In this document: piece after piece, positions 1-13,898 of the stretch
Layout: each line of letters starts with the position of its first letter
How positions within the stretch are numbered: position 1 is the first letter of the stretch
Assembly: GCA_041548245.1 (NCBI GenBank)
Contig: JBFESZ010000050.1
Span: forward strand, 1 to 13,898
DNA length: 13,898 nucleotides
Reading direction: 5' to 3'
DNA from: Sulfurimonadaceae bacterium
GTDB lineage: Bacteria > Campylobacterota > Campylobacteria > Campylobacterales > Sulfurimonadaceae
Notes under the pieces: model-generated
The model's database searches: none
What the model was told of the DNA's origin: nothing
The model's input: the letters and a program-made list of their open reading frames with translations, nothing else
Made by a program: the position numbers and the translations under genes

Positions 1-1464
1 CTCCTGTTTTTATTTTCCCTGCCTATCGTCGTACTTCTATTTCTTACCTTCCCGAGAATATCCTATAAAAAAGCCCGTTTCGGATTTGCAGCTGAAGAGA
101 TCAAGCGAACGGGCCATGATGGGACCATGCATCTTGATTCAAATGCCATGCTTGTACCCTCACCTAAACTGGTTATGGAAGTTACATTTGAAGAGCAAGT
201 TCCCTCTGATCATGCACTCTATTTTCGAGGTTCAGTCCTTTATACGGACATGGGTACACGCTGGGTACAGGAGGGAAGCATCTATGCCAAACGAACCATG
301 CCACTTGATGTGCAGAACGTCATAAACTACAAAATCAAACTCTATCCGCACAATCAACTGTGGCTCTATATGCTAGATATTCCCCTGATGCAACCTCTTA
401 AAAGTACGATTGATAAAGACTTTATCACACGAAGCCAAGAATTGGTCAAAGAGACTCTGTATTACGAAGGACGTTCGGCCTTAAACTACACACTTCCCCA
501 AGAAGACCAAAAAATTCTCTATAAAGCCCTTCAATTCGATAGAAATAGAGACCCTAAAACCTACAAAGCACTCAGAGATGCCATAGACATCAATGCCGAT
601 AGTCTAAGCAAAGCGAATGCGCTACTAAACTTCTTCTCCGAGTTAGAACTTTCTTATTCACTAAAACCTAAAAAAATAGACCTGGCACACCCTGTTGATT
701 CCTTTCTTTACGACTCCAAGATCGGTTACTGTGTCCATTTTGCTTCATCCTTTGCAACAAGTGCCCGTATGATAGGTATACCGGCAAGAGTCGTTACAGG
801 ATATAAAGCGGACCGTTCCAATGCGATTAACAATTATCTTCTTGTAAAAGAGGCGGATGCACATGCCTGGGTTGAGTTGTATATACAAGGTCAAGGATGG
901 CAAAGGTTTGAACCTACATCCACGGCGCGGCGTGTCCTTGCACCCGAGAATCCTCAACTATCCAATACCTATACGAATGCATCATTGCAACTTACTAGCA
1001 TACAAAAGCTCTTCAGACAAATCAATATCTACTATATGTATACCCGATACATCTTAAACAACTGGGTCCTGCAATACAGCCGTATGAAACAAAACGCATT
1101 GCTGCATAAACTACTCAACAACACACTGTTTCTATTCAAGTTCCTTGCCTCTCTTGCTGCCTTAATCCTGCTGAGTATCATCGCCTTTGTTCTGCTTCAG
1201 CGCAAAAGGTGCGATGACCCGGTATTGTGCGAGATGAAAAAACTTGTTAAAGTGTTGAAAAAAGAAGGCATTCGAAGAGAACGTGGCGAGACGATGTTCG
1301 ACTTTTTACAAAGAGCAGGCATTAACGGAGCTCATACAGATGAGATTTCAGAGATAAACACTCTGTATCATCTGTGCAGATACTCCCGGAGAGAAGACGA
1401 TAGCCTTCTCATACGGCTACGTCGTAGTATTCTTGCGCTGAAAAAGTCTCTTAAGAACGGCTAG
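1..1464 (+). CDS. Transglutaminase-like domain membrane protein, TgpA/DUF3488 type (5' end lies outside the window)
   Basis: Frame +1 is open from base 1 (LLFLFSLPIVVLLFLTFPR...TGHDGTM), so the ORF-track start at 127 is internal. Transglutaminase-like core motifs: GYCVHFA (Cys codon 730-732), GIPARVVTGY, AHAWVE (His codon 862-864), RFEPT (Glu codon 910-912). C-terminal hydrophobic helix FLASLAALILLSIIAFVLL. Stop at 1462-1464. Confidence 0.9.
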   Translation, partial: LLFLFSLPIVVLLFLTFPRISYKKARFGFAAEEIKRTGHDGTMHLDSNAMLVPSPKLVMEVTFEEQVPSDHALYFRGSVLYTDMGTRWVQEGSIYAKRTMPLDVQNVINYKIKLYPHNQLWLYMLDIPLMQPLKSTIDKDFITRSQELVKETLYYEGRSALNYTLPQEDQKILYKALQFDRNRDPKTYKALRDAIDINADSLSKANALLNFFSELELSYSLKPKKIDLAHPVDSFLYDSKIGYCVHFASSFATSARMIGIPARVVTGYKADRSNAINNYLLVKEADAHAWVELYIQGQGWQRFEPTSTARRVLAPENPQLSNTYTNASLQLTSIQKLFRQINIYYMYTRYILNNWVLQYSRMKQNALLHKLLNNTLFLFKFLASLAALILLSIIAFVLLQRKRCDDPVLCEMKKLVKVLKKEGIRRERGETMFDFLQRAGINGAHTDEISEINTLYHLCRYSRREDDSLLIRLRRSILALKKSLKNG

Positions 1465-2017
1465 TCACTTCAACGATATGAAAACCGAACTGTGTCTTGA
1501 CGATATGCAGTGTGTTTAGCTCTGCATTAAAACAGACCTCATCAAATTCCGGAACCATCTGTCCTTGTGTAAACTGACCCAAATCACCACCGCTGCTTTT
1601 TGAAGGACAAGCCGAGTTCTCCATCGCGACCTGAGCAAAATCGGCTCCCGCTTCGATCTGGGATCTTAACTCCAGACATTTCTCTTCACTGTCAACTAGA
1701 ATATGACGTGCACTTGCTGTTTGAACGACCGGTTCTTCTACTTCTTCGCGGCTTGTCACCTCAACGATATGGTAACCAAACTGCGTTTTTACGATATGCA
1801 GGACGTTTATTTCATCATTAAAACAGACCTTGTCAAATTCCGGAACCATCTGTCCTTGTGTAAACTGACCCAAATCACCACCGCTGCTTTTTGAAGGACA
1901 AGCCGAGTTCTCCATCGCGACCTGAGCAAAATCGGCTCCCGCTTCGATCTGTGATCTTAACTCCAGACATTTGTCTTCATTATCTACTAATATGTGGCGT
2001 GCACTTGCAATTATCAT
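1451..2017 (-). CDS. ppiC: Peptidyl-prolyl cis-trans isomerase, parvulin family, with two tandem PpiC domains (about 188 aa, no signal peptide)
   Basis: Each domain has ASARHILV, FAQVA..NSACPS, GGDLG.F, MVPEF and TQFG(Y/F)HIV. ATG at 2017 is preceded by AGGAGAG (2021-2027, minus strand), so it is preferred over the ORF-track start at 2053. Confidence 0.93.
   Translation of the reverse strand: MIIASARHILVDNEDKCLELRSQIEAGADFAQVAMENSACPSKSSGGDLGQFTQGQMVPEFDKVCFNDEINVLHIVKTQFGYHIVEVTSREEVEEPVVQTASARHILVDSEEKCLELRSQIEAGADFAQVAMENSACPSKSSGGDLGQFTQGQMVPEFDEVCFNAELNTLHIVKTQFGFHIVEVTSRS
1458..2008. repeat. Intragenic direct repeat with 291-bp period (copies at about 1458-1717 and 1749-2008)
   Basis: Manual alignment: 1542-1660 is identical to 1833-1951 (119 bp), and 1542-1681 vs 1833-1972 has one mismatch. 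The flanks are about 80% identical. Confidence 0.97.
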
Positions 2018-2070
2018 AATCTCTCCTGAATCGTATTTTATGAAATCGTACACTAAACCTCTTTACAAAT

Positions 2071-2692: not shown

Positions 2693-4873
2693 TCATACTT
2701 TAGGATGCTTCTTGTCGTTCACAAGTCTATTGATGAAGTTTCCAACAGATTTAAAGACCTTCTTATTTCCCTTGCCTGCAATCATGACATGTCTGGAAAA
2801 ATCGAACATTTCAAGAGCTTTATCCCCTGAACTGATACTCTGCAGTATTTTATCTGCACTTTCAGGCTTGACGACAGGGTCTTTGTCTGCTTGAAGTATT
2901 AAAGTCGGTGTCGTGATTATTGGCAGGATAGACCGGCACTCTTCCATCAATTGGCGCAGCTGCTCAAGGGATTTGATATAGTTTCTCTCATAATTAAACT
3001 CCGGAAACTCGGCTTCAGTGTCAATATATTCCATACCTGCATGAAATATCGATAAAAAATCATTCATCTTGCTAAGCGATGGTACAAAGTATTTGACTCG
3101 TATATCTTGAAGCTCAAGTGCAGCATTAATGACGACAAGTCCGTCTACCTTATTCGACTTTCTTGCAGTGGCCAGCATCGCCAACAAGCCACCTGTTGAA
3201 AAACCAATAAGACAGAGTCTCTTACTCACCTGACGCATAGCGGCAAAACCTCGGTTAAAACTGTCATACCACTCTTCCCAGGTTCTATCTCGTAGGTCCT
3301 CACTCACTGTCCCATGGCCTTCAAGTCTTACGGCATACACGTTTATACCTCGTTCATGCAAGTAGTTTGCCAACTCTTTTACTTCAGAAGGAGATGACCT
3401 GTAACCATGAGATATGACTACACCTGTAGTAAAGACCGGATTATACAGGACAAAAGGCCTACCTGTCTCTTTGGGTTTAGACAGATGTACGGAATAAAAC
3501 CGATTATAGTTTTTTACATAGTGTTTGTAATCTCTGTCATAGATAACTTTGAAGACCTCTTCCTTGACCCTGGTTGAACTTTCACATAAATTATCTTTGA
3601 TACTGCATAGATTATCATGCACACTTTTAGACACTTCGGGAAACAGTGCGATCTCATTCAAGATCACACGAAGCGTATTTTTAACCCGGATGGAATGAAA
3701 GGTATGCTCATCTGCAAACACGTCCCTGTTAATAAGATAAAAATCCTCTTCGACTTTCGACAATACTTTTTGCTCTAACGCCAAAGTAAGACTACTGTCG
3801 TACCAAGGGTCACACTCATCCGTAAGCAATTTAAACAACTCTTCCGTAATACTGTGATGAAGATTGAACTTATTAAGCTGTCCTACATCTCTGGCGGCTA
3901 AAAAAATCGCCCGTTTAAGCTCATTGGAGTCTATATGGTCTTCACCGTAATGCTCCAAAGCCAGGGCAAAGATATGATCAAAATTGATCAGAACATTTTT
4001 ATACACTGCTGCCATAAACTGTGTTGTCAAATCATGACGACAGGTGTTGATTATATCTTCACCTTCGAAAGGCTCACACTCTTCCTTTCTTGTCTCTTTT
4101 GCCTCATACAGGTACTTATAAATATCGATGGGCTTATCAAAAAAGATGTGAATTTCGGAGTTAAGCAATATATTTCCCTCAATTTCAAGTTCTTCTTTAA
4201 TACGCTCATCAATCTTGTCGACAAACCTTTCACCAATACTCATAAGAGGATTCATTCCCGGACGGATAGGCACATAGGTGATATTGATTGGAACCACCAC
4301 CGTATTTTTATAGGCGACACGCTCATCCGGGTTTATAAAATATGTTTCTCGCATCTGACGGACCTTTATGACATCACCCGCCTGTTGCGCTTCTTTGTAC
4401 TCCTGTTTAAGCAGTTCGGACTTCATCGCCAATACGGCTGAGCCTGTATGCATCTTCTCTGTTCCATCCAAAAAGTCTAGTATAAACTCTTTGTTACGAA
4501 TGATCTTTTTATTTTTGACCATCGCACCTTCAGGGTAGATCATCCAATTCTTACGACCTGTCATCAAATCACCCAGTATAATTTCGTCCCGGTGTTTATG
4601 CTGCGTAGAGAGTGTTCCTAATTTGTTTAAAAAACTTCCAAAATATCCGACAAAGATCGAATGATCAGCAAGAGAACGCACTGCCATTTGTGAATGCGAA
4701 GAGATAACATAGGGCATCACAAAAGTCTCAAAACGCGTAAAATGATTAGCGACAAAAAGTGTAGGAGAATCATGTAAAAGGTTTTCTTCACCGTGTACAT
4801 GGATATTCGTCTCAAGAATGGATTCAACCAGACTCATTAAATACGTAGTTGAACTGTAAAATATATTCTCCAT
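2693..4873 (-). CDS. Fusion protein: N-terminal PlsC-like glycerolipid acyltransferase domain plus C-terminal alpha/beta-hydrolase (carboxylesterase/monoacylglycerol-lipase-like), 726 aa
   Basis: N-terminal blocks FVANHFTRFE (H44, E49), IYPEG (about aa 112-116) and VVPINITY. C-terminal SHGY (H489), RLEGHG, GFSTGG nucleophile elbow (S559), DPVV (D665) and RHV (H695). RBS AAGGGA lies in the 19-nt gap after fadE. Confidence 0.87.
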   Translation of the reverse strand: MENIFYSSTTYLMSLVESILETNIHVHGEENLLHDSPTLFVANHFTRFETFVMPYVISSHSQMAVRSLADHSIFVGYFGSFLNKLGTLSTQHKHRDEIILGDLMTGRKNWMIYPEGAMVKNKKIIRNKEFILDFLDGTEKMHTGSAVLAMKSELLKQEYKEAQQAGDVIKVRQMRETYFINPDERVAYKNTVVVPINITYVPIRPGMNPLMSIGERFVDKIDERIKEELEIEGNILLNSEIHIFFDKPIDIYKYLYEAKETRKEECEPFEGEDIINTCRHDLTTQFMAAVYKNVLINFDHIFALALEHYGEDHIDSNELKRAIFLAARDVGQLNKFNLHHSITEELFKLLTDECDPWYDSSLTLALEQKVLSKVEEDFYLINRDVFADEHTFHSIRVKNTLRVILNEIALFPEVSKSVHDNLCSIKDNLCESSTRVKEEVFKVIYDRDYKHYVKNYNRFYSVHLSKPKETGRPFVLYNPVFTTGVVISHGYRSSPSEVKELANYLHERGINVYAVRLEGHGTVSEDLRDRTWEEWYDSFNRGFAAMRQVSKRLCLIGFSTGGLLAMLATARKSNKVDGLVVINAALELQDIRVKYFVPSLSKMNDFLSIFHAGMEYIDTEAEFPEFNYERNYIKSLEQLRQLMEECRSILPIITTPTLILQADKDPVVKPESADKILQSISSGDKALEMFDFSRHVMIAGKGNKKVFKSVGNFINRLVNDKKHPKV

Positions 4874-4892
4874 TACTTCCCTTGATCAGACC

Positions 4893-7289
4893 CTAGTTTC
4901 TTTCTGCATAATCTTTCACGGAGAACTCATCAACCATTATAGTCTCTTCTCTTATCCGCCTGGCTTCTTTCATCAGTGCATGCTCTTCCTCATTGATAAG
5001 ACCTGAGTCAAGTGCATTCTTATAAAGATCGCCTTCTTTACTGAGTTTTCTTGCTTTAAGCTCTTTTTTTACCTTAGTTGCGATGATGTCCGCCTTCCTT
5101 GATAATTGAAAGGCATGTTCAAGTCTGCCTAGCGCCGAGTTATCGTCTTTGGGAATATATATCCCCTCTGTAAGTTTTTCCCTATCTGCATTATCGAAGA
5201 GTATTTTGTGTGCCAACTCTTTTGAATAAAGATCACTTGGTGCTTTGGAAAATGCATTAAGGCGCACATAAAAAGCCACTGGATAAGCGAACAATAACCC
5301 GACTATGGATCGGTCAATGTTATTGCTAATCTCTTCAAAGGCATTTTGTATCTCATACAGAGCATAATCTCCTATCCATTTGACATACACTTTATCTTCT
5401 GCTCTTTCGCCTTCATCTTCATAACGTTTCAATGTAGCGCTTAAAAGATACATCCAAGACAAAATGTCACCAAAACGTGCTGTGACCTTCTCTTTTTGTT
5501 TGAGATTGCCACCGTAATACCCCATGACAAAATCTGTAAGGAAAGCGAAAGTAGCAGAGCTCCAGACTAATTTTCGCTCATACTTCGCAATCAGGGATGA
5601 ACGTGATGAAAAATGCAAATGACCACGGCTAAAACTCAGCAAAATCATACGGACCATATTGCGTAACGTAAAACCGATATGTTTAAAGAAGTTCTCATCA
5701 AAATCTTTCACATTCCCCTTTTCAAGAGCTTCTATCTCCTTATAGGCATAAGGATGGCAACGAATAACGCCCTGTCCGAATTGGATAAGCGTACGTGTCA
5801 TGATATTCGCACCCTCGACCGTAATTGCCACTGGCGCACTGAAGTAGGCATGTCCCAATAGGTTCTTTGGTCCAAGTGAGATTGCAGCCCCGCCCAAGAT
5901 ATCCATGGATTTATTGATGATCTCTCTGAATTTCTCTGTGGAGTGATACTTCATGACTGCATTGATTACAGCCGGTTTTTTCCCCTCGTCAATGGCACCA
6001 ATAGTAAACTTTCGTGAAGCATCCATCATATAGGTAAATGCTGCGATCTTTGCCAGTTCAGTCTCAATGCCTTCAAACTTTCCGATAGATATTCCAAACT
6101 GTTCACGCACTTCTGCATAGGCTCCTGCAACACGGGCACAAAGTTTTGCTCCGCCTGTGCTTGTCGATGGCAGAGAAATACCTCGTCCGACAGCCAAGGA
6201 CTCCATCAACATCATCCAACCTTTGCCAATACCTTTCTCACCGCCGATAATATCATCAATACCTATCTCGACGTCTTTACCACTGATCGGCGAGTTGATA
6301 AATGGTACGCTTAACGGATCATGGCGACGCCCTTGAACTACACCTTTACTCTTAGCATCGACCAAGGCACAACAGATTCCAAGGTCTACACCCCTTCCCA
6401 GAACCTCTTCAGGGTCTTTAAGAATAAAAGCCAGACCTATCACCGTAGCGATTGATCCCAGTGTGATATAACGTTTGTCAAACTGAAGACGAATTTTGAC
6501 ATTTCCAGACTCATCTTTAAAAACCTCTCCGTAAGAGCGTATAGATGTCGCATCTGATCCGGCATGTGGTTCAGTCAATGCAAAACAGGGAATATCCGTT
6601 CCATCGGCCAAACGTGGAAGATAATGTTCTTTCTGCTTTGTCGTACCATAATGCATAAGCAGTTCTGCCGGTCCAAGAGAGTTTGGTACCATTGTCGTAA
6701 TAGCCAAGACCTGTGAACGTGATGCCATTTTTTGTATGACTGCACTATGCCCGAGTGCTGAAAATCCCAAACCACCATACGATTTTGGAATAATCATCCC
6801 GAAGAACTTATTCTCTTTAAGGTATCGCCACACCTCTTCAGAAAGATCGCGCTCCTTAAAGACAGCCCAGTCATCCGTCATTTCACAAACGGTATCGACC
6901 TCATTTTCCAAGAACTCTTTTTCCTCTTGAGAGAGTGAAGGATAGTTCTCTTTGAATATACTGTCAAAGTCTGGTTTTCCACTGAAAAACTCACCGTCAA
7001 CCCATATTGTTCCGGCACGTAATGCCGTCTTTTCTGTCTCTGATATTCGAGGCATCAGGTGTAACCTGTTAACCAGACTTACCAGATGGCGACTAATGAG
7101 CTCCTGACGGATACTTGGCGTCAACAGTATGATATTGACAGGTATATATATCATCCAAAAAAGCATCCCCGGTTCACACCCGAAAAAGATAGTTGCCGCT
7201 AAAACTGCAGCCCAATAGACTGCCTTTGCTCCACGATACCATAAGGTTATTAAAACCAGTAATAGAGCGATTGTTATATATTCCATCAT
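4893..7289 (-). CDS. fadE: Acyl-CoA dehydrogenase, long FadE type with N-terminal membrane anchor, 798 aa
   Basis: MPRISETEKTALRAGTIW, VPNSLGPAELL, CFALTEPHAGSDA, KRYITL, GRGISLP, REQFG, catalytic ITVEGANIMTR and C-terminal IMVDEF. Hydrophobic N-terminus; RBS GGGAG. Confidence 0.95.
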   Translation of the reverse strand: MMEYITIALLLVLITLWYRGAKAVYWAAVLAATIFFGCEPGMLFWMIYIPVNIILLTPSIRQELISRHLVSLVNRLHLMPRISETEKTALRAGTIWVDGEFFSGKPDFDSIFKENYPSLSQEEKEFLENEVDTVCEMTDDWAVFKERDLSEEVWRYLKENKFFGMIIPKSYGGLGFSALGHSAVIQKMASRSQVLAITTMVPNSLGPAELLMHYGTTKQKEHYLPRLADGTDIPCFALTEPHAGSDATSIRSYGEVFKDESGNVKIRLQFDKRYITLGSIATVIGLAFILKDPEEVLGRGVDLGICCALVDAKSKGVVQGRRHDPLSVPFINSPISGKDVEIGIDDIIGGEKGIGKGWMMLMESLAVGRGISLPSTSTGGAKLCARVAGAYAEVREQFGISIGKFEGIETELAKIAAFTYMMDASRKFTIGAIDEGKKPAVINAVMKYHSTEKFREIINKSMDILGGAAISLGPKNLLGHAYFSAPVAITVEGANIMTRTLIQFGQGVIRCHPYAYKEIEALEKGNVKDFDENFFKHIGFTLRNMVRMILLSFSRGHLHFSSRSSLIAKYERKLVWSSATFAFLTDFVMGYYGGNLKQKEKVTARFGDILSWMYLLSATLKRYEDEGERAEDKVYVKWIGDYALYEIQNAFEEISNNIDRSIVGLLFAYPVAFYVRLNAFSKAPSDLYSKELAHKILFDNADREKLTEGIYIPKDDNSALGRLEHAFQLSRKADIIATKVKKELKARKLSKEGDLYKNALDSGLINEEEHALMKEARRIREETIMVDEFSVKDYAERN

Positions 7290-7300
7290 ATCTCCCTTTC

Positions 7301-9403
7301 TTAATAAAATGTCTTGTTGTTTTTTGCCATATCTCGCAAGAGTTTCGCCGGTTCAAACCTCATTCCATGGTTTTTGGACAAAGACTCGAGCGTCATTACA
7401 ACATTTTGCGCGCCCAGTGAATCGGCATAACGCAACAGACCTCCCCTGAACGGTGGGAAGCCTGTCCCCATTACCATTGCCATGTCCAGATATTGCGCAT
7501 TTTCGACAATCCCCTCTTCCAGGCACATCGCAGCCTCATTGATCATGATCAGAAGTGCTCTGTCGATTATCTCCTGCTCGTCAAACCTACGTTTTGAGAA
7601 GACAAGCTTCACAACTTCTTCATTAACTTCACGTTTTTTACTGCCGTGAATATAGAACCCCTTTCCTGATTTTTTCCCAAGCAACTGCATCTGTTGATAC
7701 ACTCTATCAAGAATAGATGAAACTTTCATTCTCTCTCCATAAGCATCTTCAAGTACCTTGGCAACTTTATAACCGACATCAAGTCCGACTTCATCAGCCA
7801 AAACAAAAGGACCCATCGGCATACCAAAATCTGATATCAAGGCATCAATCTTTTCAAAATCGGCACCCTCTTCAAACATTCTTACCGCCTCATTGATATA
7901 AGGAAGCAAAATACGGTTTACTAAAAAGCCCGCACAGTCTCCTACAACGACAGGTGTTTTTCCAGCCTCCTTGGCAAGGGCAACCACCGTCGCTATGGTC
8001 CTGTCGGAGGTCATCTTACCTGGTATAATCTCAACAAGAGGCATTCGAGGCACAGGATTGAAAAAATGCATCCCTATAAATCGTTCAGGATGCTGCATCT
8101 TCTCACTAAGCATTGTAATGGACAAAGAAGACGTATTGGTCGCAATGATGGCCTTCTCGTCCATAATCTCTTCAAGCTGACCATAGAGTTCCTGTTTGGC
8201 CTTTGTATCCTCCACAATAGCTTCAAGCGCGAGGTCACAATTATTAAACCCGCTAAAGTCAGTTGTATAGGTAATATGTCCCATCCTCATGTTGACTTCA
8301 GCCGGAGTCAAACGATGGCGCTTGACAATCCCGTCATAGACTTTTTGGATCGATTTCAAGGCCTCTGTCGCCTGCTCATACCGACGAAGTTTCATCCGAA
8401 CGAGTTTTCCTATTTTAGAAAACTGAAACACTATTCCTGATCCCATCACGCCGGCACCGACAACGTTCATCAACCGCACCTGTAATGGATTGATTCTGCG
8501 TTTGACTCCACGTTCCTTCTTCAAGGCTTCAGAAGTATAAAATAGGGCTATAAGGTTTTTGCTAATGTCTGTGATGGCAAGCTTTGAAAAGGCTCTGGCC
8601 TCATATTCCAGCCCCTCTTCGACTTCTTTGTTCTGTGTCCTTTCCATCAGGTCCAGTACTGCTAGAGGCGCAGGATACTTGTTCTTTGTCTTTGCAGCAA
8701 CACTCTTACGGGCATAAGAGAAGACCAGTTTTGGAAGATAACGATCCATCAAAGAAGCTTTTTTCCGCTTTTTCACTATTTCATGTGGGTTATTCAAAAT
8801 AAGTTCAATAAAACTTTTTTGTTTGAACTCCAAATACCCCTGAGGAACACAAGCATCAACAACACCCAGTTTCTCAGCTTTTTTTCCATTTAATATCTTG
8901 CCGCCAAGAATCAACTCCAATGCTTTGGAGAGACCTGTAAGGTACTTTAATCGTTGTGTTCCTCCAAATCCAGGCAGAACACCCAAGTTGACTTCAGGCA
9001 AGCCTATCTTTGTTTTAGGACTTTCCGTACATAAACGGTAATCACAACACAGAGCCAATTCCAGGCCACCGCCCAAACACGCTCCGTCGATAACAGCCAG
9101 TGTGGGATAAGGAAGCGCTGAGATCTCGCTCAATATTTTTTGACCTTCACGGACTTTTTCATATGCCTCCTCTTCATCTCTTAAGTCTTCTATCTCAGAG
9201 ATGTCAGCACCCGCTATGAATATTCCGTCTTTCGCAGAGGTGATCTGAAGCAGCCTAATATCCTCAGCCTTTTTTATCTCTTGAAGTTTACTATCTAAAG
9301 TCCTTAATACATCCGAAGAAAGAATGTTGATAGCGGACTCTTCCAAATCCAGGCAGAGGGTTGCAATGCCATTATTGTCTACAGAAAAATCAAATGCTTT
9401 CAT
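7301..9403 (-). CDS. fadJ: Multifunctional fatty-acid oxidation complex alpha subunit (enoyl-CoA hydratase / 3-hydroxyacyl-CoA dehydrogenase), FadJ/FadB type, 700 aa
   Basis: Crotonase motifs FIAGADI, CLGGGLELAL and GLPEVNLGVLPGFGGTQRL. Dehydrogenase motifs GAGVMG, EAIVE, TNTSSL, GMHFFNP, GFLVNR and GMPMGP. The probable start is ATG 9403 (MKAF), overlapping the thiolase stop (TAATG) with GGAGG upstream, not 9451. fadJ versus fadB cannot be settled without a tree. Confidence 0.92.
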   Translation of the reverse strand: MKAFDFSVDNNGIATLCLDLEESAINILSSDVLRTLDSKLQEIKKAEDIRLLQITSAKDGIFIAGADISEIEDLRDEEEAYEKVREGQKILSEISALPYPTLAVIDGACLGGGLELALCCDYRLCTESPKTKIGLPEVNLGVLPGFGGTQRLKYLTGLSKALELILGGKILNGKKAEKLGVVDACVPQGYLEFKQKSFIELILNNPHEIVKKRKKASLMDRYLPKLVFSYARKSVAAKTKNKYPAPLAVLDLMERTQNKEVEEGLEYEARAFSKLAITDISKNLIALFYTSEALKKERGVKRRINPLQVRLMNVVGAGVMGSGIVFQFSKIGKLVRMKLRRYEQATEALKSIQKVYDGIVKRHRLTPAEVNMRMGHITYTTDFSGFNNCDLALEAIVEDTKAKQELYGQLEEIMDEKAIIATNTSSLSITMLSEKMQHPERFIGMHFFNPVPRMPLVEIIPGKMTSDRTIATVVALAKEAGKTPVVVGDCAGFLVNRILLPYINEAVRMFEEGADFEKIDALISDFGMPMGPFVLADEVGLDVGYKVAKVLEDAYGERMKVSSILDRVYQQMQLLGKKSGKGFYIHGSKKREVNEEVVKLVFSKRRFDEQEIIDRALLIMINEAAMCLEEGIVENAQYLDMAMVMGTGFPPFRGGLLRYADSLGAQNVVMTLESLSKNHGMRFEPAKLLRDMAKNNKTFY

Positions 9404-10692
9404 TATTCTACCTCCAAAATCAGTGATGCACCCTGTCCACCACCTATACATAAAGTAGCGAGACCTCTGTTCTTGCCTCTACGACGCAATTCTTTCAAAG
9501 TATGTATCACAAGACGTGTACCTGTCATACCGACAGGGTGTCCCAAGGCGACAGCACCACCATTGACATTGAAAGTACTCATATCTATGCTGCCCAATGC
9601 CTGACTTCGTCCAAAATGCTCTTTCGCATAGCTTTTAGAATCAAAGGCGACGACATTTGCCAAGGCTTGAACAGCGAAAGCCTCATTCATCTCTATTAGA
9701 TCAATATCCTTGAGACTCATTTTATACTTTCCGAACAGCTTGGCTGTCGCATATGAAGGTCCCATCCCCATACGTTTTGGTTCAAGACCGGCATAGGCGT
9801 AACGGCTCAAATACCCCAAAGGTTCGAGACCCATCGATTTAGCCTTGGATTCACTCATCAAAACAACAGCGGCTGCGGCATCTGAGACCTGCGATGAGTT
9901 ACCGGCCGTGACTGTTCCATTTTTTCTATCAAAGAATGGTCGCAGTTTTCCCAAGGCATCCATGCTCTGTCCAAAACGTATACCGTCATCATCTTCCATG
10001 ATTTTGCCTGCTTTGCTATCATAGACAAGCGGTGAGATCTCTTCTCTGAATATTCCGGCCTTTGTCGCTGCTTCAGCTTTTTTATGACTCTCCAGGGCGA
10101 ACCTGTCCTGCTCTTCTCTGCTTATTCCAAAATCCTGTGCCAAGACCTCAGCAGTTGAACCCATCATCAAACCGCTAACGGGATCTGTAAGCCCTTGCAT
10201 AAGGCCGATAATGGGTTTAATATATCGAAACCTAAAATGCGTAAGTGTATAAAGCTTTTCTGATATGCTCTTTGCTTTAAAGAGCGCTTCAAAGAGTTCT
10301 TTCATCTTGTCACTGTAAATCAAAGGGATATTGCTCATCGACTCCACGCCACCGGACATAAATATCTCACCCTGACCCGCTAATATCTTAGACGCAGCCG
10401 ATGTAATCGATTCCATACCTGATGCGCAGTTTCTGTGCACCGTGTAGGCTATGGTAGAATCCGGGAATCCTGCTTCCAAAGCAATCACACGTGCCACATT
10501 CGCTGCATGAGCAGGCTGCGAGACATTACCCATAATCACCTCATCGTACATCTCAAAGGGTATTCCCACTCTCAATGCCAGTTCCTGAACGATATGTGCA
10601 CCTAATCTCTCGGCATGGATATCTTTGAAGTTACCGCCTGCCTTTGCGATGGGAGTACGTATTCCATCTATTATTGCTATACGCTCTTTCAT
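9403..10692 (-). CDS. fadI: 3-ketoacyl-CoA thiolase (FadI/FadA type), 429 aa
   Basis: DGIRTP, RNCASG (nucleophile Cys), GGVESMS, VTAGNSSQVSD, NEAFA, GHPVGMTG and LCIGGGQG. The long loop after GGVESMS is FadI-like. The start overlaps the fadD stop (ATGA, 10689-10692). Confidence 0.93.
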   Translation of the reverse strand: MKERIAIIDGIRTPIAKAGGNFKDIHAERLGAHIVQELALRVGIPFEMYDEVIMGNVSQPAHAANVARVIALEAGFPDSTIAYTVHRNCASGMESITSAASKILAGQGEIFMSGGVESMSNIPLIYSDKMKELFEALFKAKSISEKLYTLTHFRFRYIKPIIGLMQGLTDPVSGLMMGSTAEVLAQDFGISREEQDRFALESHKKAEAATKAGIFREEISPLVYDSKAGKIMEDDDGIRFGQSMDALGKLRPFFDRKNGTVTAGNSSQVSDAAAAVVLMSESKAKSMGLEPLGYLSRYAYAGLEPKRMGMGPSYATAKLFGKYKMSLKDIDLIEMNEAFAVQALANVVAFDSKSYAKEHFGRSQALGSIDMSTFNVNGGAVALGHPVGMTGTRLVIHTLKELRRRGKNRGLATLCIGGGQGASLILEVE

Positions 10693-12425
10693 GATTCACT
10701 CCTGTAAAAGTTTTCTATCTCATGTTTGTATATCTCTTCGACCTTCTTGCGTGAGAGCTTCATCGACGGCGTCAAAATACCGCTTTCTATACTTACCTGG
10801 TCACTGACGATATAAAATTTCTGTATCTGTTCCCAATGATTCAATCTAAGGTTTAGTTTTTTGATGATGTTAAATACAATAGCCTGAATACGCTTGTGCT
10901 GTACCAACTCTTCGTATGTGAGTCCATCTAGTCGTTTACGTTCTGCAAAAGCTTGTAATAATGTCTCATCCATAAAAACCAAAGCTGATACAAAAGGTCT
11001 GCCATCAGCAATAATAATCGCATAATCTATCCATTTGTTCGCTGTTATCTCCTGCTCTATGGCGATTGCAGAAACATATTTTCCTGTTGATGTCTTAAAG
11101 AGCTCTTTTTTACGGCTGAGAATTGTAATGTATCCTTCATCATCAATTTCAGCCAGATCTCCTGTATGCAACCATCCTTCTTCATCAATCGTCTCTTTTG
11201 TCTTAAGAGGCTGCTGGTGATATCCAAGCATCATACTCTCCCCTCGCATCAGTAGTTCAGAATCTTCGGCCAGTTTGACTTCAACATGTGCATAAGCTTT
11301 TCCGCATGTTCCTACCTTATTCGCATCAGGTGTGTTCACGCATATGACAGGAGAAGTCTCGGTAAGGCCATAGCCTTGATAAAGAGGTACACCTATATTA
11401 TGAAAAAATCTGTATACCGCCATAGAGAGTGGTGCACCTCCGCTGATAAGATATTTCAGCTCCCCTCCGAGCGCATCTGTGAGTTTTGAATAGACCAGTT
11501 TTGCGAAGATCCTATCAAGGAAGTTCTCTTTATCCCTATTTGGGTCTTTATGGTTTGCCCTAGAAAAAGCCATCCAGGCCACCAACCATTTAAGACCTTT
11601 TGCTGCATGTGCGTTCTCATGCATCTTGATGTAAATTTTGTCCAATAGACGCGGTACCACCGTCATGACATTTGGCCTTATATCTTTTAACAGGTTGGCT
11701 ACATTTTTAACATCATCGGCAAAATAGATCGATGCACCCGTTGTAAGATAAAAACTCATAACCATACGTTCGAATATATGTGCCAAAGGAAGGAAGCTCA
11801 AGACTTTATAACTTTTTTCCATCGTAAAACATTCATGTGTGTCTTTGATTTGCGTGATGATGTTTAGGTGCGAAAGCTCAACACCTTTGGGAACACCTGT
11901 TGAGCCGCTAGTATAGATAATAGTTGCCAGATCATTAGGTGAGATATTTGGTCTTTCATAGGAGATATCCGCTGTTAAAAAATCATCCCACAATTCAATA
12001 TTGTTACCGCTGGCTTGAATATCTTTAAGCAGGACTAACTTCATGCTCTCCAGATAGGAAGCTATTTGATCGTATTTCTCCTGTGAAGCTATATAGGCGT
12101 ACTCAATTTGTGCATCTTTGAGTTCAAAGTTAAGGTTTTCTGAAGAGATATTGGCGAAGATGGGGACCGAGACAGCCCCCAAACATTGCAAGGCATAATC
12201 CACCATCAACCAGAAAGGTGAGGAGTCAGAGATAATGGCGACACTTGTGCCTTGAGATACACCCCGTTTTTGAAAAGCACTTGCCAAAGCATGAACCGAA
12301 CGGACAAACTCTGCAGAAGAGATACTTTTCCACTGAGCGTCTTCAAGATAGTTCAAATAGTTTTCATTGGCTATCTCGTTTTCAATATATTCAACAATTT
12401 CACAGAGGTTATTACATTCAAACAT
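10689..12425 (-). CDS. fadD: Long-chain fatty acid--CoA ligase (AMP-dependent synthetase), about 578 aa
   Basis: IIYTSGSTGVPKG P-loop, FLPLAHIFER, SGGAPL, QGYGLTETSP, WLHTGDL, RKKELFKTSTGKY and LTPSMK. ATG 12425, preceded by AAGGG, is preferred over TTG 12431. Confidence 0.93.
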   Translation of the reverse strand: MFECNNLCEIVEYIENEIANENYLNYLEDAQWKSISSAEFVRSVHALASAFQKRGVSQGTSVAIISDSSPFWLMVDYALQCLGAVSVPIFANISSENLNFELKDAQIEYAYIASQEKYDQIASYLESMKLVLLKDIQASGNNIELWDDFLTADISYERPNISPNDLATIIYTSGSTGVPKGVELSHLNIITQIKDTHECFTMEKSYKVLSFLPLAHIFERMVMSFYLTTGASIYFADDVKNVANLLKDIRPNVMTVVPRLLDKIYIKMHENAHAAKGLKWLVAWMAFSRANHKDPNRDKENFLDRIFAKLVYSKLTDALGGELKYLISGGAPLSMAVYRFFHNIGVPLYQGYGLTETSPVICVNTPDANKVGTCGKAYAHVEVKLAEDSELLMRGESMMLGYHQQPLKTKETIDEEGWLHTGDLAEIDDEGYITILSRKKELFKTSTGKYVSAIAIEQEITANKWIDYAIIIADGRPFVSALVFMDETLLQAFAERKRLDGLTYEELVQHKRIQAIVFNIIKKLNLRLNHWEQIQKFYIVSDQVSIESGILTPSMKLSRKKVEEIYKHEIENFYRSES

Positions 12426-12550
12426 ATCCAACCCTTAAGGTAAATATCTTTATCGCATTACATATTCTATCTCATTTATTTTACGATTCAAACATTTTTT
12501 AACTTTTTTGAATATTGAAATTTTATTTGTACATTTTATTTAAAGTTTGT

Positions 12551-12617: not shown

Positions 12618-13361
12618 GTGATACAAAAACCGAATTTTTATGCTGTTATCATCGGCACTGAAATATTAGACCGCCGCAGAGAGGACAAGCACTTTAATTA
12701 TCTGAGTAAAGCGCTTAAATCCAAAGGGTTTAGTCTTTTTGCCTCCTTTCTTATCAAAGATGACAGACAGCTCATCACAAAGACCTATGAGATGATCAAT
12801 GACGATCCTGTATCGATGATGTTCAGCTTTGGGGGTATAGGTTCTACACCTGATGACCTGACACGCCAGCTTAGTGCTGATGTCTTCTCCGATGGAAAGC
12901 TTTATCGACACCCTAAATTTGAGCAGGACATCATCAACCGTATGGGTGAAAAGGCCTATCCCCATCGCATCCAGATGTCTGATCTACCTAAGAATGCACA
13001 ACTTCTATTTAATCCTGTCAATAACATGTCGGGTTTTCATCTTCACGAACGTTTTTTCTTTATGCCAGGTTTTCCCGAGATGTCTCATCCTATGGTCGAT
13101 GAGATTCTTTCAAAATATATTCCCGAACCTGAAAAAATTTTCAATAAGAGCTTATTAGCCGAATGCGGTGAAGGAAACATACAGCATCTAATGGTGGATC
13201 TTCCTGCTCAGATTGAGCTCTCCTCTTTGCCTATGATGAATAATGGCAATCCAAAAGTCGAACTGAGATTGAGCTCTGCTGACGAGAAGTTGCTAAAGCT
13301 ACACTTTCAAATATTTACTGATTTTTTAAATCACGAAGCAATAGGATACGAACTCTTATGA
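12618..13361 (+). CDS. CinA-like / molybdopterin-binding-fold protein (COG1058 type; no C-terminal PncC domain), 247 aa
   Basis: VIIGTEIL...EDKH, GGIGSTPDDLTR and FMPGFP. GTG start with GGGAG RBS. Confidence 0.88.
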   Translation: MIQKPNFYAVIIGTEILDRRREDKHFNYLSKALKSKGFSLFASFLIKDDRQLITKTYEMINDDPVSMMFSFGGIGSTPDDLTRQLSADVFSDGKLYRHPKFEQDIINRMGEKAYPHRIQMSDLPKNAQLLFNPVNNMSGFHLHERFFFMPGFPEMSHPMVDEILSKYIPEPEKIFNKSLLAECGEGNIQHLMVDLPAQIELSSLPMMNNGNPKVELRLSSADEKLLKLHFQIFTDFLNHEAIGYELL

Positions 13362-13898
13362 GGTTTTCGCTTTTCTTTTTAGCCTTTATAGCTGTGATGG
13401 CTCTATTAAACCTTTACATCTATAGACGCTTCTTTCAAAAGCTGCATCCTCCCTTTAATCGCTATGCCTTTGTCATTCCTTCTGTCTTGATGTTAGGCGA
13501 ATTTTTCTTTGTCGTTGAAGCGATGACACATCTGCTTAAACAGAGCCCTGCTATCTATTTCTTGCTCTCGGCCTCGATTGGAATCACCTTTTTACTCTTT
13601 GTTACGGCACTTATCTATGACCTTAACCTTTCTCTGTTTAAACGTGTACCTTATCAGGAAAACCGTCGGAAGTTTATCAAGATCATCTTTGATACGACTA
13701 TGCTTATTTTAGCCTTTAGCTACTTTTTCAAAGGTCTGAAAGGAGGCCTATCTACTCCTATATTAAATACTATAGATATCAATATTCCCGGGTTTGGCGA
13801 AAAGGAATATGTACTGATTCAACTTAGCGATATCCACGTAGGAAAAACCATACAAAAATCCTTTGTTAGGGAGCTTGTACACAGAGTCAATGCTCAAC
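13358..13898 (+). CDS. Membrane-anchored metallophosphoesterase (calcineurin-like, YkuE-related), 3' end outside the window; absent from the ORF track
   Basis: ATG 13358 overlaps the upstream stop (ATGA) and the frame is open to the window end: MRFSLFFLAFIAVMALLNLY...NRRKFIK...IQLSDIHVGK...ELVHRVNAQ. Four hydrophobic segments are followed by the first metal-binding motif DxH (Asp codon 13829-13831). Confidence 0.88.
   Translation, partial: MRFSLFFLAFIAVMALLNLYIYRRFFQKLHPPFNRYAFVIPSVLMLGEFFFVVEAMTHLLKQSPAIYFLLSASIGITFLLFVTALIYDLNLSLFKRVPYQENRRKFIKIIFDTTMLILAFSYFFKGLKGGLSTPILNTIDINIPGFGEKEYVLIQLSDIHVGKTIQKSFVRELVHRVNAQ

Follow-up and report, generated by a model that had tools for sequence, protein, structure and literature searches.

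We describe an operon-like cluster of five genes in a stretch of 13,898 nt from a sulfur-oxidising Sulfurimonadaceae bacterium (Campylobacterota; assembly GCA_041548245.1, contig JBFESZ010000050.1), hereafter the window. The genes lie consecutively on the minus strand from position 12425 to position 2693 and encode, in this order, an acyl-CoA synthetase, a thiolase, a FadJ-type enzyme, a FadE-type dehydrogenase and a 726-aa protein in which an acyltransferase-like half is fused to an esterase-like half. We consider it an even prospect that they form a co-transcribed operon for fatty-acid use and salvage, in which a beta-oxidation core is combined with a bifunctional lipid enzyme, so that a fatty acid would be either burned or re-esterified. 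The elements on which this reading draws are the following, in coordinates of the window, with the evidence for each in brackets.

12455..12517, minus strand: conserved upstream block, candidate promoter or operator, its function being predicted (little or no variation across 8 of 8 aligned Sulfurimonadaceae loci)
10689..12425, minus strand: long-chain acyl-CoA synthetase, 'fadD' by function, 578 aa (AMP-binding, 234.6 bits, and AMP-binding_C_3)
9403..10692, minus strand: 3-ketoacyl-CoA thiolase of the FadI/FadA class, 429 aa (Thiolase_N, 251 bits; Thiolase_C, 137 bits)
7301..9403, minus strand: FadJ-type bifunctional enoyl-CoA hydratase/(S)-3-hydroxyacyl-CoA dehydrogenase, 700 aa (ECH_1, 3HCDH_N, 3HCDH)
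8381..8389, minus strand: L339-R340-R341 at the tip of Rossmann strand beta2 of FadJ, replacing the Asp that binds ribose (alignment with FadJ of E. coli)
4893..7289, minus strand: FadE-type long acyl-CoA dehydrogenase with a hydrophobic N-terminus, 798 aa (ACDH_C, 281.7 bits, and Acyl-CoA_dh N, M and 1)
4124..4804, minus strand: fusion residues 24-250, acyltransferase core of the LPLAT/PlsC superfamily (PF01553, invariant motifs, fold matches)
3464..4123, minus strand: fusion residues 251-470, conserved and mostly helical middle domain (confident models, in which it packs between the two catalytic domains)
2693..3463, minus strand: fusion residues 471-726 and stop codon, esterase of the monoacylglycerol-lipase/Est30 family (Hydrolase_4, profile and Foldseek matches)

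The gene order was taken from the list of open reading frames (ORFs), and every junction was checked by direct reading of the sequence. The synthetase starts with an ATG at 12425, which is preceded by an AAGGG ribosome-binding site and kept in all eight aligned relatives; a TTG at 12431 offers a second possible start. The gene ends in a TGA that overlaps the ATG of the thiolase gene as ATGA (10692..10689), and the TAA of the thiolase gene overlaps the ATG of fadJ as TAATG at 9403. We take 9403 to be the true start of fadJ, not that of a longer ORF from 9451, because the NCBIfam alignments begin at residue 17 of the latter. Between the end of fadJ at 7301 and the start of fadE at 7289 lie 11 nt with a GGGAGA ribosome-binding site, while a gap of 19 nt (4892..4874), containing a AAGGGAAG ribosome-binding site, separates fadE from the fusion gene (4873..2693). 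A preliminary description, made from the letters of the window, had portrayed the five genes as a single tight unit on one strand joined by these overlaps and gaps, and this picture was confirmed in every detail that we checked. Its remark that no obvious internal terminator is present was equally sound: a scan of the region placed no terminator-like site between any two of the genes; its 8 sites, counted over both strands, do not exceed the 6.5 ± 3.2 expected from shuffled sequences, and all four of those on the minus strand lie inside coding sequence. A terminator after the stop of the fusion gene was also considered and rejected; the hairpin there is no more stable than shuffled sequence (z -0.34).

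Upstream of the synthetase, the sequence of the conserved block contains an inverted repeat, ATTCAAA-N14-TTTGAAT (12513..12486), and overlaps a promoter-like element, TTGAAT-16-TAGAAT (12491..12464), that matches at 9 of 12 positions; the block is put forward as a candidate promoter or operator for the five genes. The window gave no Rfam match and contains no tRNA. A mobile-element origin was rejected as unsupported, the GC content of the window being even (0.39-0.46) and its flanking genes syntenic in relatives. Since the same gene order recurs in 28 of 33 related loci with at least 7.7 kb of upstream DNA, the arrangement is not a product of chance. The overlaps, the short gaps with their own ribosome-binding sites and the lack of terminator-like sites in these gaps suggest that the five genes are co-transcribed as one unit.

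By domain content and profile scores, none of the four core genes is unusual within its superfamily. Only FadE and the thiolase exceed a curated subfamily cut-off. The best model for the synthetase is FadD11 (314 bits, below the cut-off of 950), and it fails the E. coli FadD equivalog PRK08974 (121.3 bits against a cut-off of 884); it is thus classed as ACSL/FadD11-like and not as an orthologue of E. coli FadD, 'fadD' being a functional label only. The thiolase passes the subfamily cut-off of the degradative thiolases (TIGR01930, 444.7 against 240.55 bits) and falls below the FadI equivalog PRK08963 (437.9 against 560 bits), its nearest named models being PRK08170 and FadI. The FadJ-type protein, with an N-terminal crotonase and a C-terminal dehydrogenase domain, has the architecture of the FadJ/FadB alpha-subunit, aligns end to end with the structures of the anaerobic FadJ of E. 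coli (8bnu/6ysv, E 6e-155), and conserves in that alignment the Glu residues of the hydratase and the His/Glu of the dehydrogenase; it misses the equivalog cut-offs of PRK11154 (722.9 against 869) and TIGR02440 (641.6 against 968). FadE clears the PRK09463 subfamily cut-off (980.7 against 600 bits) and fails the 'exception' model of E. coli FadE (836 against 1300). The synthetase, FadE, FadJ and the FadI-like thiolase would thus provide a complete beta-oxidation cycle for saturated chains, for which we infer a catabolic direction because the fourth enzyme is a FadE-type dehydrogenase and not an enoyl-CoA reductase. For the same reason, the suggestion in the preliminary description that the module also elongates chains is not supported.

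The fifth gene is the distinctive member of the cluster. In the N-terminal part of its product, Pfam identifies an Acyltransferase domain (PF01553) at residues 24-128 with 33.4 bits, above the gathering cut-off of 23, and alignments of 13, 68 and 44 relatives show two invariant motifs, N43-H44-F-T-R-x-E49 (motif I, N-H44-F-T-R-F-E49 in the window) and Y113-P-E-G116 (motif III, Y-P-E115-G116). The pattern N-H-x4-E is present in 102 of 106 full-length fusion representatives and the Asp variant in none; by these alignments, the motif I Glu is a hallmark of the family. In the lipid A acyltransferase LpxM, residue E127 presumably belongs to a motif of the same H-x4-E form. The title of PDB entry 5knk names this Glu a catalytic residue, so that Glu in place of Asp need not inactivate the acyltransferase. 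The basic residues R47, R95, K120 and K122 are also invariant in 68 fusion sequences, with R66 nearly so, and the first four would suit a phosphorylated acceptor. Searched alone against Pfam, the middle domain had no hit below E 0.029.

The full-length AlphaFold model is compact and confident (predicted local distance difference test, pLDDT, 86.9; predicted TM score, pTM, 0.86), and the fusion models overall reached a pLDDT of about 87 and a pTM of 0.85-0.86. Residues 1-470 were modelled separately (pLDDT 86.7), since the fold search with the full-length model was swamped by alpha/beta hydrolases. The best fold match of this part is human GPAT1 (8e4y, E 8.6e-10, 545 columns), a loose match with a query TM score (TMq) of 0.50 and a root-mean-square deviation (rmsd) of 12.6 Å, followed by PlsC of T. 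maritima (5kym, E 7e-4, 294 columns) and then by plastid GPATs; in these models the middle domain may correspond to the large extra domain of GPAT1-type enzymes. Filing the fusion under PlsB was considered and dropped, because no significant similarity emerged from a profile comparison with PlsB of E. coli (hhalign E 0.18). The alignment is limited to the core motifs, with H-x4-E set on H-x4-D and YPEG on FVEGG.

In the C-terminal part, Pfam places Hydrolase_4 (PF12146) at residues 485-697 with 88 bits, well above the gathering cut-off of 27. The esterase motifs are H489-G490, G557-F-S559-T-G-G (G557-x-S559-x-G561 across relatives), D665 and H695, in which the triad columns are invariant and the Ser, Asp and His align with those of monoacylglycerol lipases (MGLs). 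H489-G490, S559, D665 and H695 are invariant, together with H44-x4-E49 and YPEG, in the 68 fusion sequences. The best profile matches of this half are MGL chains (7e0n/7e04/5xks/3rm3, E 3e-47 to 1e-43), the Est30-type carboxylesterases ranking after them at E of about 1e-36, and Foldseek with the full-length model retrieves 3rm3 (E 5.8e-20, target TM score, TMt, 0.87). Both halves of the fusion protein therefore look catalytically competent, as judged from their conserved residues. By the tests applied, the protein belongs to the LPLAT superfamily and to the Hydrolase_4/monoacylglycerol-lipase family, and not to PlsB, PlsC sensu stricto or Aas. The N-terminal module itself forms a discrete family, with 581 clusters (50% identity) at E<=1e-3 and 264 at E<=1e-30, and it is normally fused to an esterase, 106 of the best 150 representatives having at least 650 aa. 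A shorter representative, P0167, ends inside the esterase domain, and some of the shorter ones are probably truncated predictions. Relatives carry no database names other than 'alpha/beta fold hydrolase' or 'esterase/lipase/1-acyl-sn-glycerol-3-phosphate acyltransferase', and look-alike clusters in a protein atlas come from Campylobacterota, Pseudomonadota and Thermodesulfobacteriota. A homologue (P0064) is present in a cultured carrier, Sulfurimonas sp. HSL3-7.

On the reading that we prefer, fatty acids would be taken up or released from lipids and activated to acyl-CoA by the synthetase. Parts of a metaproteome study are relevant to uptake, in that they report an expressed FadL, the long-chain fatty-acid uptake protein, of Sulfurimonas (bioRxiv 10.1101/2021.11.16.468786). 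The acyl-CoA would then have two fates. It could pass through the cycle of FadE, FadJ and thiolase to give acetyl-CoA, reduced quinone and probably NADPH, or the GPAT/PlsC-like half of the fusion enzyme could transfer the acyl chain, received from the operon's own synthetase, onto an acceptor of the glycerol-phosphate type. The esterase half would strip the acyl chain from a mono-acylated glycerolipid (monoacylglycerol or lysophospholipid), supplying free fatty acid and free acceptor. The fusion enzyme would be cytoplasmic and probably peripheral to the membrane, and the cell would either burn the fatty acid to acetyl-CoA and reducing power or return it to membrane lipid. Acetyl-CoA and NADPH would be exactly the biosynthetic currencies for an autotroph using the reductive tricarboxylic acid cycle. 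The cycle of release, activation and re-esterification that the preliminary description had proposed is plausible only: both catalytic centres of the fusion are conserved, and its substrates are predicted ones. In a bolder form, which we regard as rather unlikely, the fusion would be a dedicated acyl-chain editing enzyme, its esterase half removing a chain from a membrane lysolipid or monoacylglycerol and its GPAT-like half adding a fresh one from acyl-CoA; through the conserved coupling of this enzyme to beta-oxidation, the operon would act as a 'burn or rebuild' lipid switch, with the pathway rewired to yield NADPH and acetyl-CoA directly for anabolism and supporting a lipid-based mixotrophy in the chemolithoautotrophic Sulfurimonadaceae, which generally pass for autotrophs.

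The identity of the substrates is also the point at which a different function can be envisaged. The fusion might serve beta-oxidation by acting as an esterase or thioesterase that disposes of stalled acyl-CoA or of acyl esters of another kind, such as wax, acyl-carnitine-like or polyester substrates, its acyltransferase half working on a non-glycerolipid acceptor. Such a function would agree with a motif I that differs from the H-x4-D of glycerolipid acyltransferases and has its parallel in E127 of LpxM, with the general carboxylesterases Est30, LipS and FphH in the esterase family, with a weak NCBIfam match to an intracellular polyhydroxyalkanoate depolymerase (32.9 bits against a cut-off of 300), and with a middle domain that belongs to no known family. 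However, the esterase half matches MGLs best in both sequence and fold (E 3e-47, against 1e-36 for Est30), the best folds of the N-terminal part are GPAT1, PlsC and plastid GPAT, and the invariant R47, R95, K120 and K122 would suit a phosphorylated acceptor; we regard this function as rather unlikely.

The association of the fusion gene with the fad genes was examined in a collection holding one genome for each of 185,579 species, in which 351 places encode a relative of the fusion; the best 80 of these 351 were searched by tblastn with the ten proteins of the window, and spacings were taken from the ends of the tblastn hits. Taxon labels in this survey are record titles and only rough, several titles of metagenome-assembled genomes (MAGs) being doubtful, such as those of freshwater MAGs titled Rickettsia typhi. 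Individual loci are designated by L numbers. The arrangements found were as follows.

44 of 80 loci: FadE immediately upstream of the fusion gene, on the same strand
4 of 80 loci: another arrangement near fad genes
27 of 80 loci: no fad gene in the locus, most of these being alphaproteobacterial MAGs
5 of 80 loci: less than 1.5 kb of upstream DNA, too short for the locus to be classed

With the addition of L061, one of the four loci of another arrangement, an acyl-CoA dehydrogenase gene stands directly upstream on the same strand in 45 of the 80 loci. In L061, titled Planctomycetota, fadD-thl-fadJ is followed by a non-orthologous 635-aa dehydrogenase of the ACAD9/VLCAD type that ends 17 nt before the fusion gene, and in the other three, the alphaproteobacterial loci L050, L063 and L067, thl-fadJ-fadE lies on the opposite strand, divergent from the fusion gene. 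Of the 44 FadE-linked loci, 43 have 7-65 nt between FadE and the fusion, and most have 7-25 nt. Among the 33 such loci with at least 7.7 kb of upstream DNA, 28 have all five genes in the order of the window and five lack the synthetase, which makes thl-fadJ-fadE-fusion the constant core. A FastTree tree of 75 fusion proteins, which serves for broad groupings only (six loci with less than 85% coverage were dropped, and L061 with L065 raises a long-branch warning), contains a Campylobacterota clade of 41 rows, of which 38 are fad-linked, two unlinked (L021 and L031) and one uninformative, so that 38 of 40 informative rows are linked. The other clade comprises 34 rows (5 linked, 4 near, 21 unlinked and 4 uninformative). 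Linked rows thus occur in both main clades, and outside Campylobacterota the linkage is found in several lineages titled Rickettsiales, Alphaproteobacteria or Planctomycetota, with the same operon order in five loci titled Rickettsiales. The fad link is real and recurrent, takes several forms and is not obligatory. Such a strong link in multiple forms argues for a functional connection between the fusion enzyme and beta-oxidation, and its recurrence in L061, in L050, L063 and L067 and in both clades appears to go beyond what simple vertical inheritance would produce. The preliminary description had proposed looking for the fusion gene both beside fad genes and beside an Asp-less FadJ; the former association is the recurrent one (45 of 80 loci), and no tie to the latter emerged. 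It had also called the module self-contained, a term that we do not keep, in view of the five of 33 operons without fadD and the 27 of 80 loci in which the fusion gene has no fad neighbours.

These unlinked loci bring up the possibility that the fusion is a passenger, a general membrane-lipid housekeeping enzyme whose gene stands behind fadE of an ordinary beta-oxidation operon in Sulfurimonadaceae by inheritance only. Apart from the 27 loci themselves, 38 of the 43 fad-linked rows of the tree fall in one clade, and a large alphaproteobacterial clade keeps a housekeeping synteny: L048, L060, L071 and L080 have common downstream genes (TrbI-like, kinase/pyrophosphorylase and sigma-54 activator), with an AIR-synthase-related gene upstream of the fusion gene in L048, L071 and L080. 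On the side of the salvage reading, in the alphaproteobacterial MAGs L053 (6198-9943) and L060 (8641-9951), which have no fad genes at the locus, the fusion gene adjoins an amine-oxidase-type flavoprotein gene; in L053 the latter adjoins a gene of the cyclopropane-fatty-acid-synthase family, a chalcone-isomerase-like gene and a major facilitator superfamily transporter gene are also present, and by these annotations the neighbourhood is one of membrane-lipid modification. Inheritance in one family would also not account for the link reappearing outside Campylobacterota, in the same order in the five Rickettsiales-titled loci, with a VLCAD-type dehydrogenase in L061 and in divergent orientation in L050, L063 and L067. 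In addition, the 7-25 nt that separate the genes in most loci imply that these are translated together from a single mRNA, and the operon's synthetase makes acyl-CoA, which is a usual acyl donor of LPLAT-family acyltransferases. We therefore consider a mere passenger improbable.

The FadJ-type protein departs from its E. coli counterpart at the cofactor site of the dehydrogenase. Where E. coli FadJ (PDB 8bnu/6ysv) has 'VRIKD', the window has 'VRMKL' followed by RR (L339, R340, R341), and the Asp that binds the NAD ribose at the tip of beta2 is not present; the Asp-less site noted in the preliminary description is therefore real. We compared this site in 41 operon-linked FadJ sequences, from the window and 40 loci. 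In 31 of them L, V, A, G or T stands where the Asp would be, and each of these 31 has Arg directly after it, whereas none of the ten that keep the Asp has Arg there. The 31 Asp-less sequences all come from Campylobacterota-type records. The Asp is retained in all eight orthologues titled Rickettsiales, Alphaproteobacteria or Planctomycetota, and also in two Sulfurimonas MAGs (L023 and L044). L020 and L023, Sulfurimonas MAGs that are sisters in the fusion tree, differ at the tip ('LKGRS' in the former, 'LKDLN' in the latter), and the Asp/Arg switch seems evolutionarily labile within the genus Sulfurimonas. In this comparison, the Asp loss is specific to Campylobacterota and is not tied to the fusion gene, because the same operon keeps the Asp elsewhere.

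An Arg at the beta2-tip position is a textbook ligand of the 2'-phosphate. A passage of the literature describes NADP use as requiring that the Asp/Glu of beta2 be lost, and the S11 legend of the same paper gives an example of Arg as ligand of the 2'-phosphate (PMC4777477). For the lineage in question, sections of a preprint report that a non-canonical complex I is universal in Sulfurimonas and Sulfurovum and that in S. denitrificans an NfnB-like protein replaces NuoF and keeps the residues that bind the phosphate of NADP(H) (bioRxiv 10.1101/717884). L339-R340-R341 can thus be read as an NADP(H)-type signature, and the window dehydrogenase probably uses NADP+, or both NAD+ and NADP+. The Asp-less site most likely represents an adaptation of an ordinary catabolic enzyme to the NADP-centred redox metabolism of its lineage, with no non-catabolic role. 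The preliminary description had considered the altered site to fit a non-standard role for FadJ; with the loss confined to Campylobacterota, the same operon keeping its Asp elsewhere and a simpler, lineage-wide explanation in the NADP-centred redox of Sulfurimonas, that suggestion is not supported. A biosynthetic or reverse beta-oxidation, in which NADPH drives chain elongation through the Asp-less FadJ before the fusion esterifies the product, would draw on the NADP-type signature, on NADPH being the usual reductant of biosynthesis and on the acyltransferase at the operon's end, but it is very unlikely, given that the operon has, as its fourth enzyme, a FadE-type dehydrogenase that scores above the subfamily cut-off and not a trans-enoyl-CoA reductase, that the same operon with its fusion keeps the NAD-type Asp in eight of eight non-Campylobacterota orthologues and in two from Campylobacterota, and that NADP-centred redox in Sulfurimonas explains the switch with the direction of the pathway unchanged. 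Portions of a review on reverse beta-oxidation likewise describe the step of the FAD-linked acyl-CoA dehydrogenase as constrained and enoyl-CoA reductases as favoured (PMC13126070).

Several points weigh against the salvage operon as we read it. Across the whole family, the substrates and activities of both fusion halves are predicted ones. Motif I is H-x4-E and lacks the Asp of the PF01553 dyad found in the H-x4-D of glycerolipid acyltransferases, the fold match to GPAT1 is loose by both TMq and rmsd, the PlsB comparison fell short of significance, and the NADP preference is deduced from three residues only. Unless the esterase and the acyltransferase differ in specificity, their joint action on one lipid would amount to a futile cycle. 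The window contains no gene for fadL, fadH, etf or a regulator. The survey sample, being the best 80 of 351 loci, is biased towards close relatives, and much of the count of 45 in 80 may reflect shared ancestry in one family. Within Campylobacterota itself, L021 and L031 have no fad link, and since the fusion gene is found without fad neighbours in 27 of the 80 loci, the enzyme does not need a fad cluster beside it and the five genes are not an indivisible module. Annotation of 60 ORFs from nine of the no-fad loci (of 96 ORFs listed from 12 loci) returned no beta-oxidation gene, the annotated neighbours being mostly housekeeping genes.

Some further features were noted around the operon. Downstream, the window has a PpiC-type parvulin gene (2053..1451, minus strand) with a tandem duplication of 291 bp at 1458-2008 (1.9 copies, 90% identical), which results in a two-domain rotamase. 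In several relatives (for example L005, L009, L010 and L012-L014) the tblastn match to it covers only about 95 residues; this suggests a single-domain gene there, and the duplication in the window therefore looks recent. The conserved flanking ORFs at 2109-2633 and 13358-13897, both on the plus strand, have no Pfam or NCBIfam match and are syntenic in relatives. The former, of 174 aa, has hydrophobic stretches; the latter is open at its 3' end, with hydrophobic N-terminal segments and a terminal LSDIHVG motif that to us is reminiscent of metallophosphoesterases. In L001 (12254-13807) and L005 (12223-13803), Pfam identifies a REC-DUF3369-HD (HD-GYP-like) response regulator after the fusion gene on the same strand, and L004, L006 and L010 have an ORF of similar size at that position. 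We considered this gene as a sixth member of the operon and rejected it, because the window lacks it and has the convergent 174-aa ORF directly after the fusion gene. Between the operon and the conserved 174-aa gene, L005 (13787-16087) also contains a cluster of NTP_transf_5 nucleotidyltransferase, PqqD-like and HPr-kinase-like genes by Pfam; it resembles a peptide-maturation cassette and is absent from the window, and ORFs of matching sizes occur in L004, L006, L010 and L012.

Dark, sulfidic habitats are dominated by Sulfurimonas and its relatives, which are commonly viewed as specialists in CO2 fixation; a conserved and complete fatty-acid operon would mean that lipids can also provide them with carbon, reducing power or preformed acyl chains. 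The recurrence of the fad/fusion pairing in many genomes suggests a link between the burning of fatty acids and their recycling into membranes. The fusion represents an uncharacterised enzyme family with two predicted, opposing lipid activities in one compact protein, and knowledge of its substrates would extend the picture of bacterial lipid turnover by a new node. In FadJ, the loss of Asp together with the gain of Arg is a natural case in which a cofactor switch in a core catabolic enzyme can be tested.

We found no paper on this operon, on the fusion family or on NADP-type FadB/FadJ in the open-access literature that we searched, and such work may be in print elsewhere. The closest known counterpart of the core is the E. 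coli set of FadI-FadJ, FadE and FadD/FadK, which provides the same four activities and has the same order of thiolase followed by alpha-subunit in fadIJ; the window FadJ matches the solved E. coli FadJ over its whole length, and FadE lies above the PRK09463 cut-off. In E. coli, the genes for these four functions are dispersed, whereas the window has all four, with a fifth, in one operon. Further differences from the E. coli set are that the window synthetase is ACSL/FadD11-like, that its FadJ lacks the NAD ribose-binding Asp, and that the equivalog cut-offs of FadJ and FadI are missed. The view in the preliminary description that canonical fad clusters do not include a glycerolipid acyltransferase/esterase agrees with a review of fatty-acid degradation in E. 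coli, the available main text of which never mentions 'acyltransferase' or 'PlsB' (PMC9329746).

The 256 C-terminal residues of the fusion have the same fold, HG oxyanion motif and Ser-Asp-His triad as the bacterial MGLs (bMGL of Bacillus sp. H257 and the Geobacillus MGL) and the Est30 carboxylesterase family (E 3e-47, TMt 0.85-0.90), at an identity of only 24-28%. The known enzymes are free proteins of about 250 aa, while the esterase of the window is the C-terminal domain of a 726-aa protein, with a substrate assigned by prediction. The N-terminal part resembles GPAT1, PlsB and PlsC in its LPLAT core, with the His of motif I and the EG of motif III, followed by a large helical domain; it differs from them in having H-x4-E for H-x4-D, in the absence of the PlsB N-terminal region and in the added esterase domain, and it constitutes a discrete family of about 581 clusters at 50% identity.

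Two further known systems bear comparison with the cluster. In E. coli, Aas (2-acyl-glycerophosphoethanolamine acyltransferase/acyl-acyl carrier protein synthetase) recycles lysophospholipids together with LplT, and the window follows the same scheme of adenylate-forming activation coupled to re-acylation of lysolipids by a PlsC-family enzyme. Aas fuses both activities and works via acyl carrier protein, whereas in the window they are encoded by separate genes about 5.8 kb apart, probably communicate via CoA and are part of a beta-oxidation operon, the acyltransferase being fused to an esterase instead; the activities thus do not share a single polypeptide, and the match to the Aas model (150.8) is far below the equivalog cut-off of 1221. 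The yeast lipases Tgl3, Tgl4 and Tgl5 also have lysophospholipid acyltransferase activity, so that a single protein pairs a GXSXG lipase centre with an acyltransferase centre of the H-x4-D type for lipid remodelling. These eukaryotic proteins have a patatin fold and carry both motifs in one domain, in contrast to the protein of the window, which appears to combine the same pair of activities by fusing two domains.

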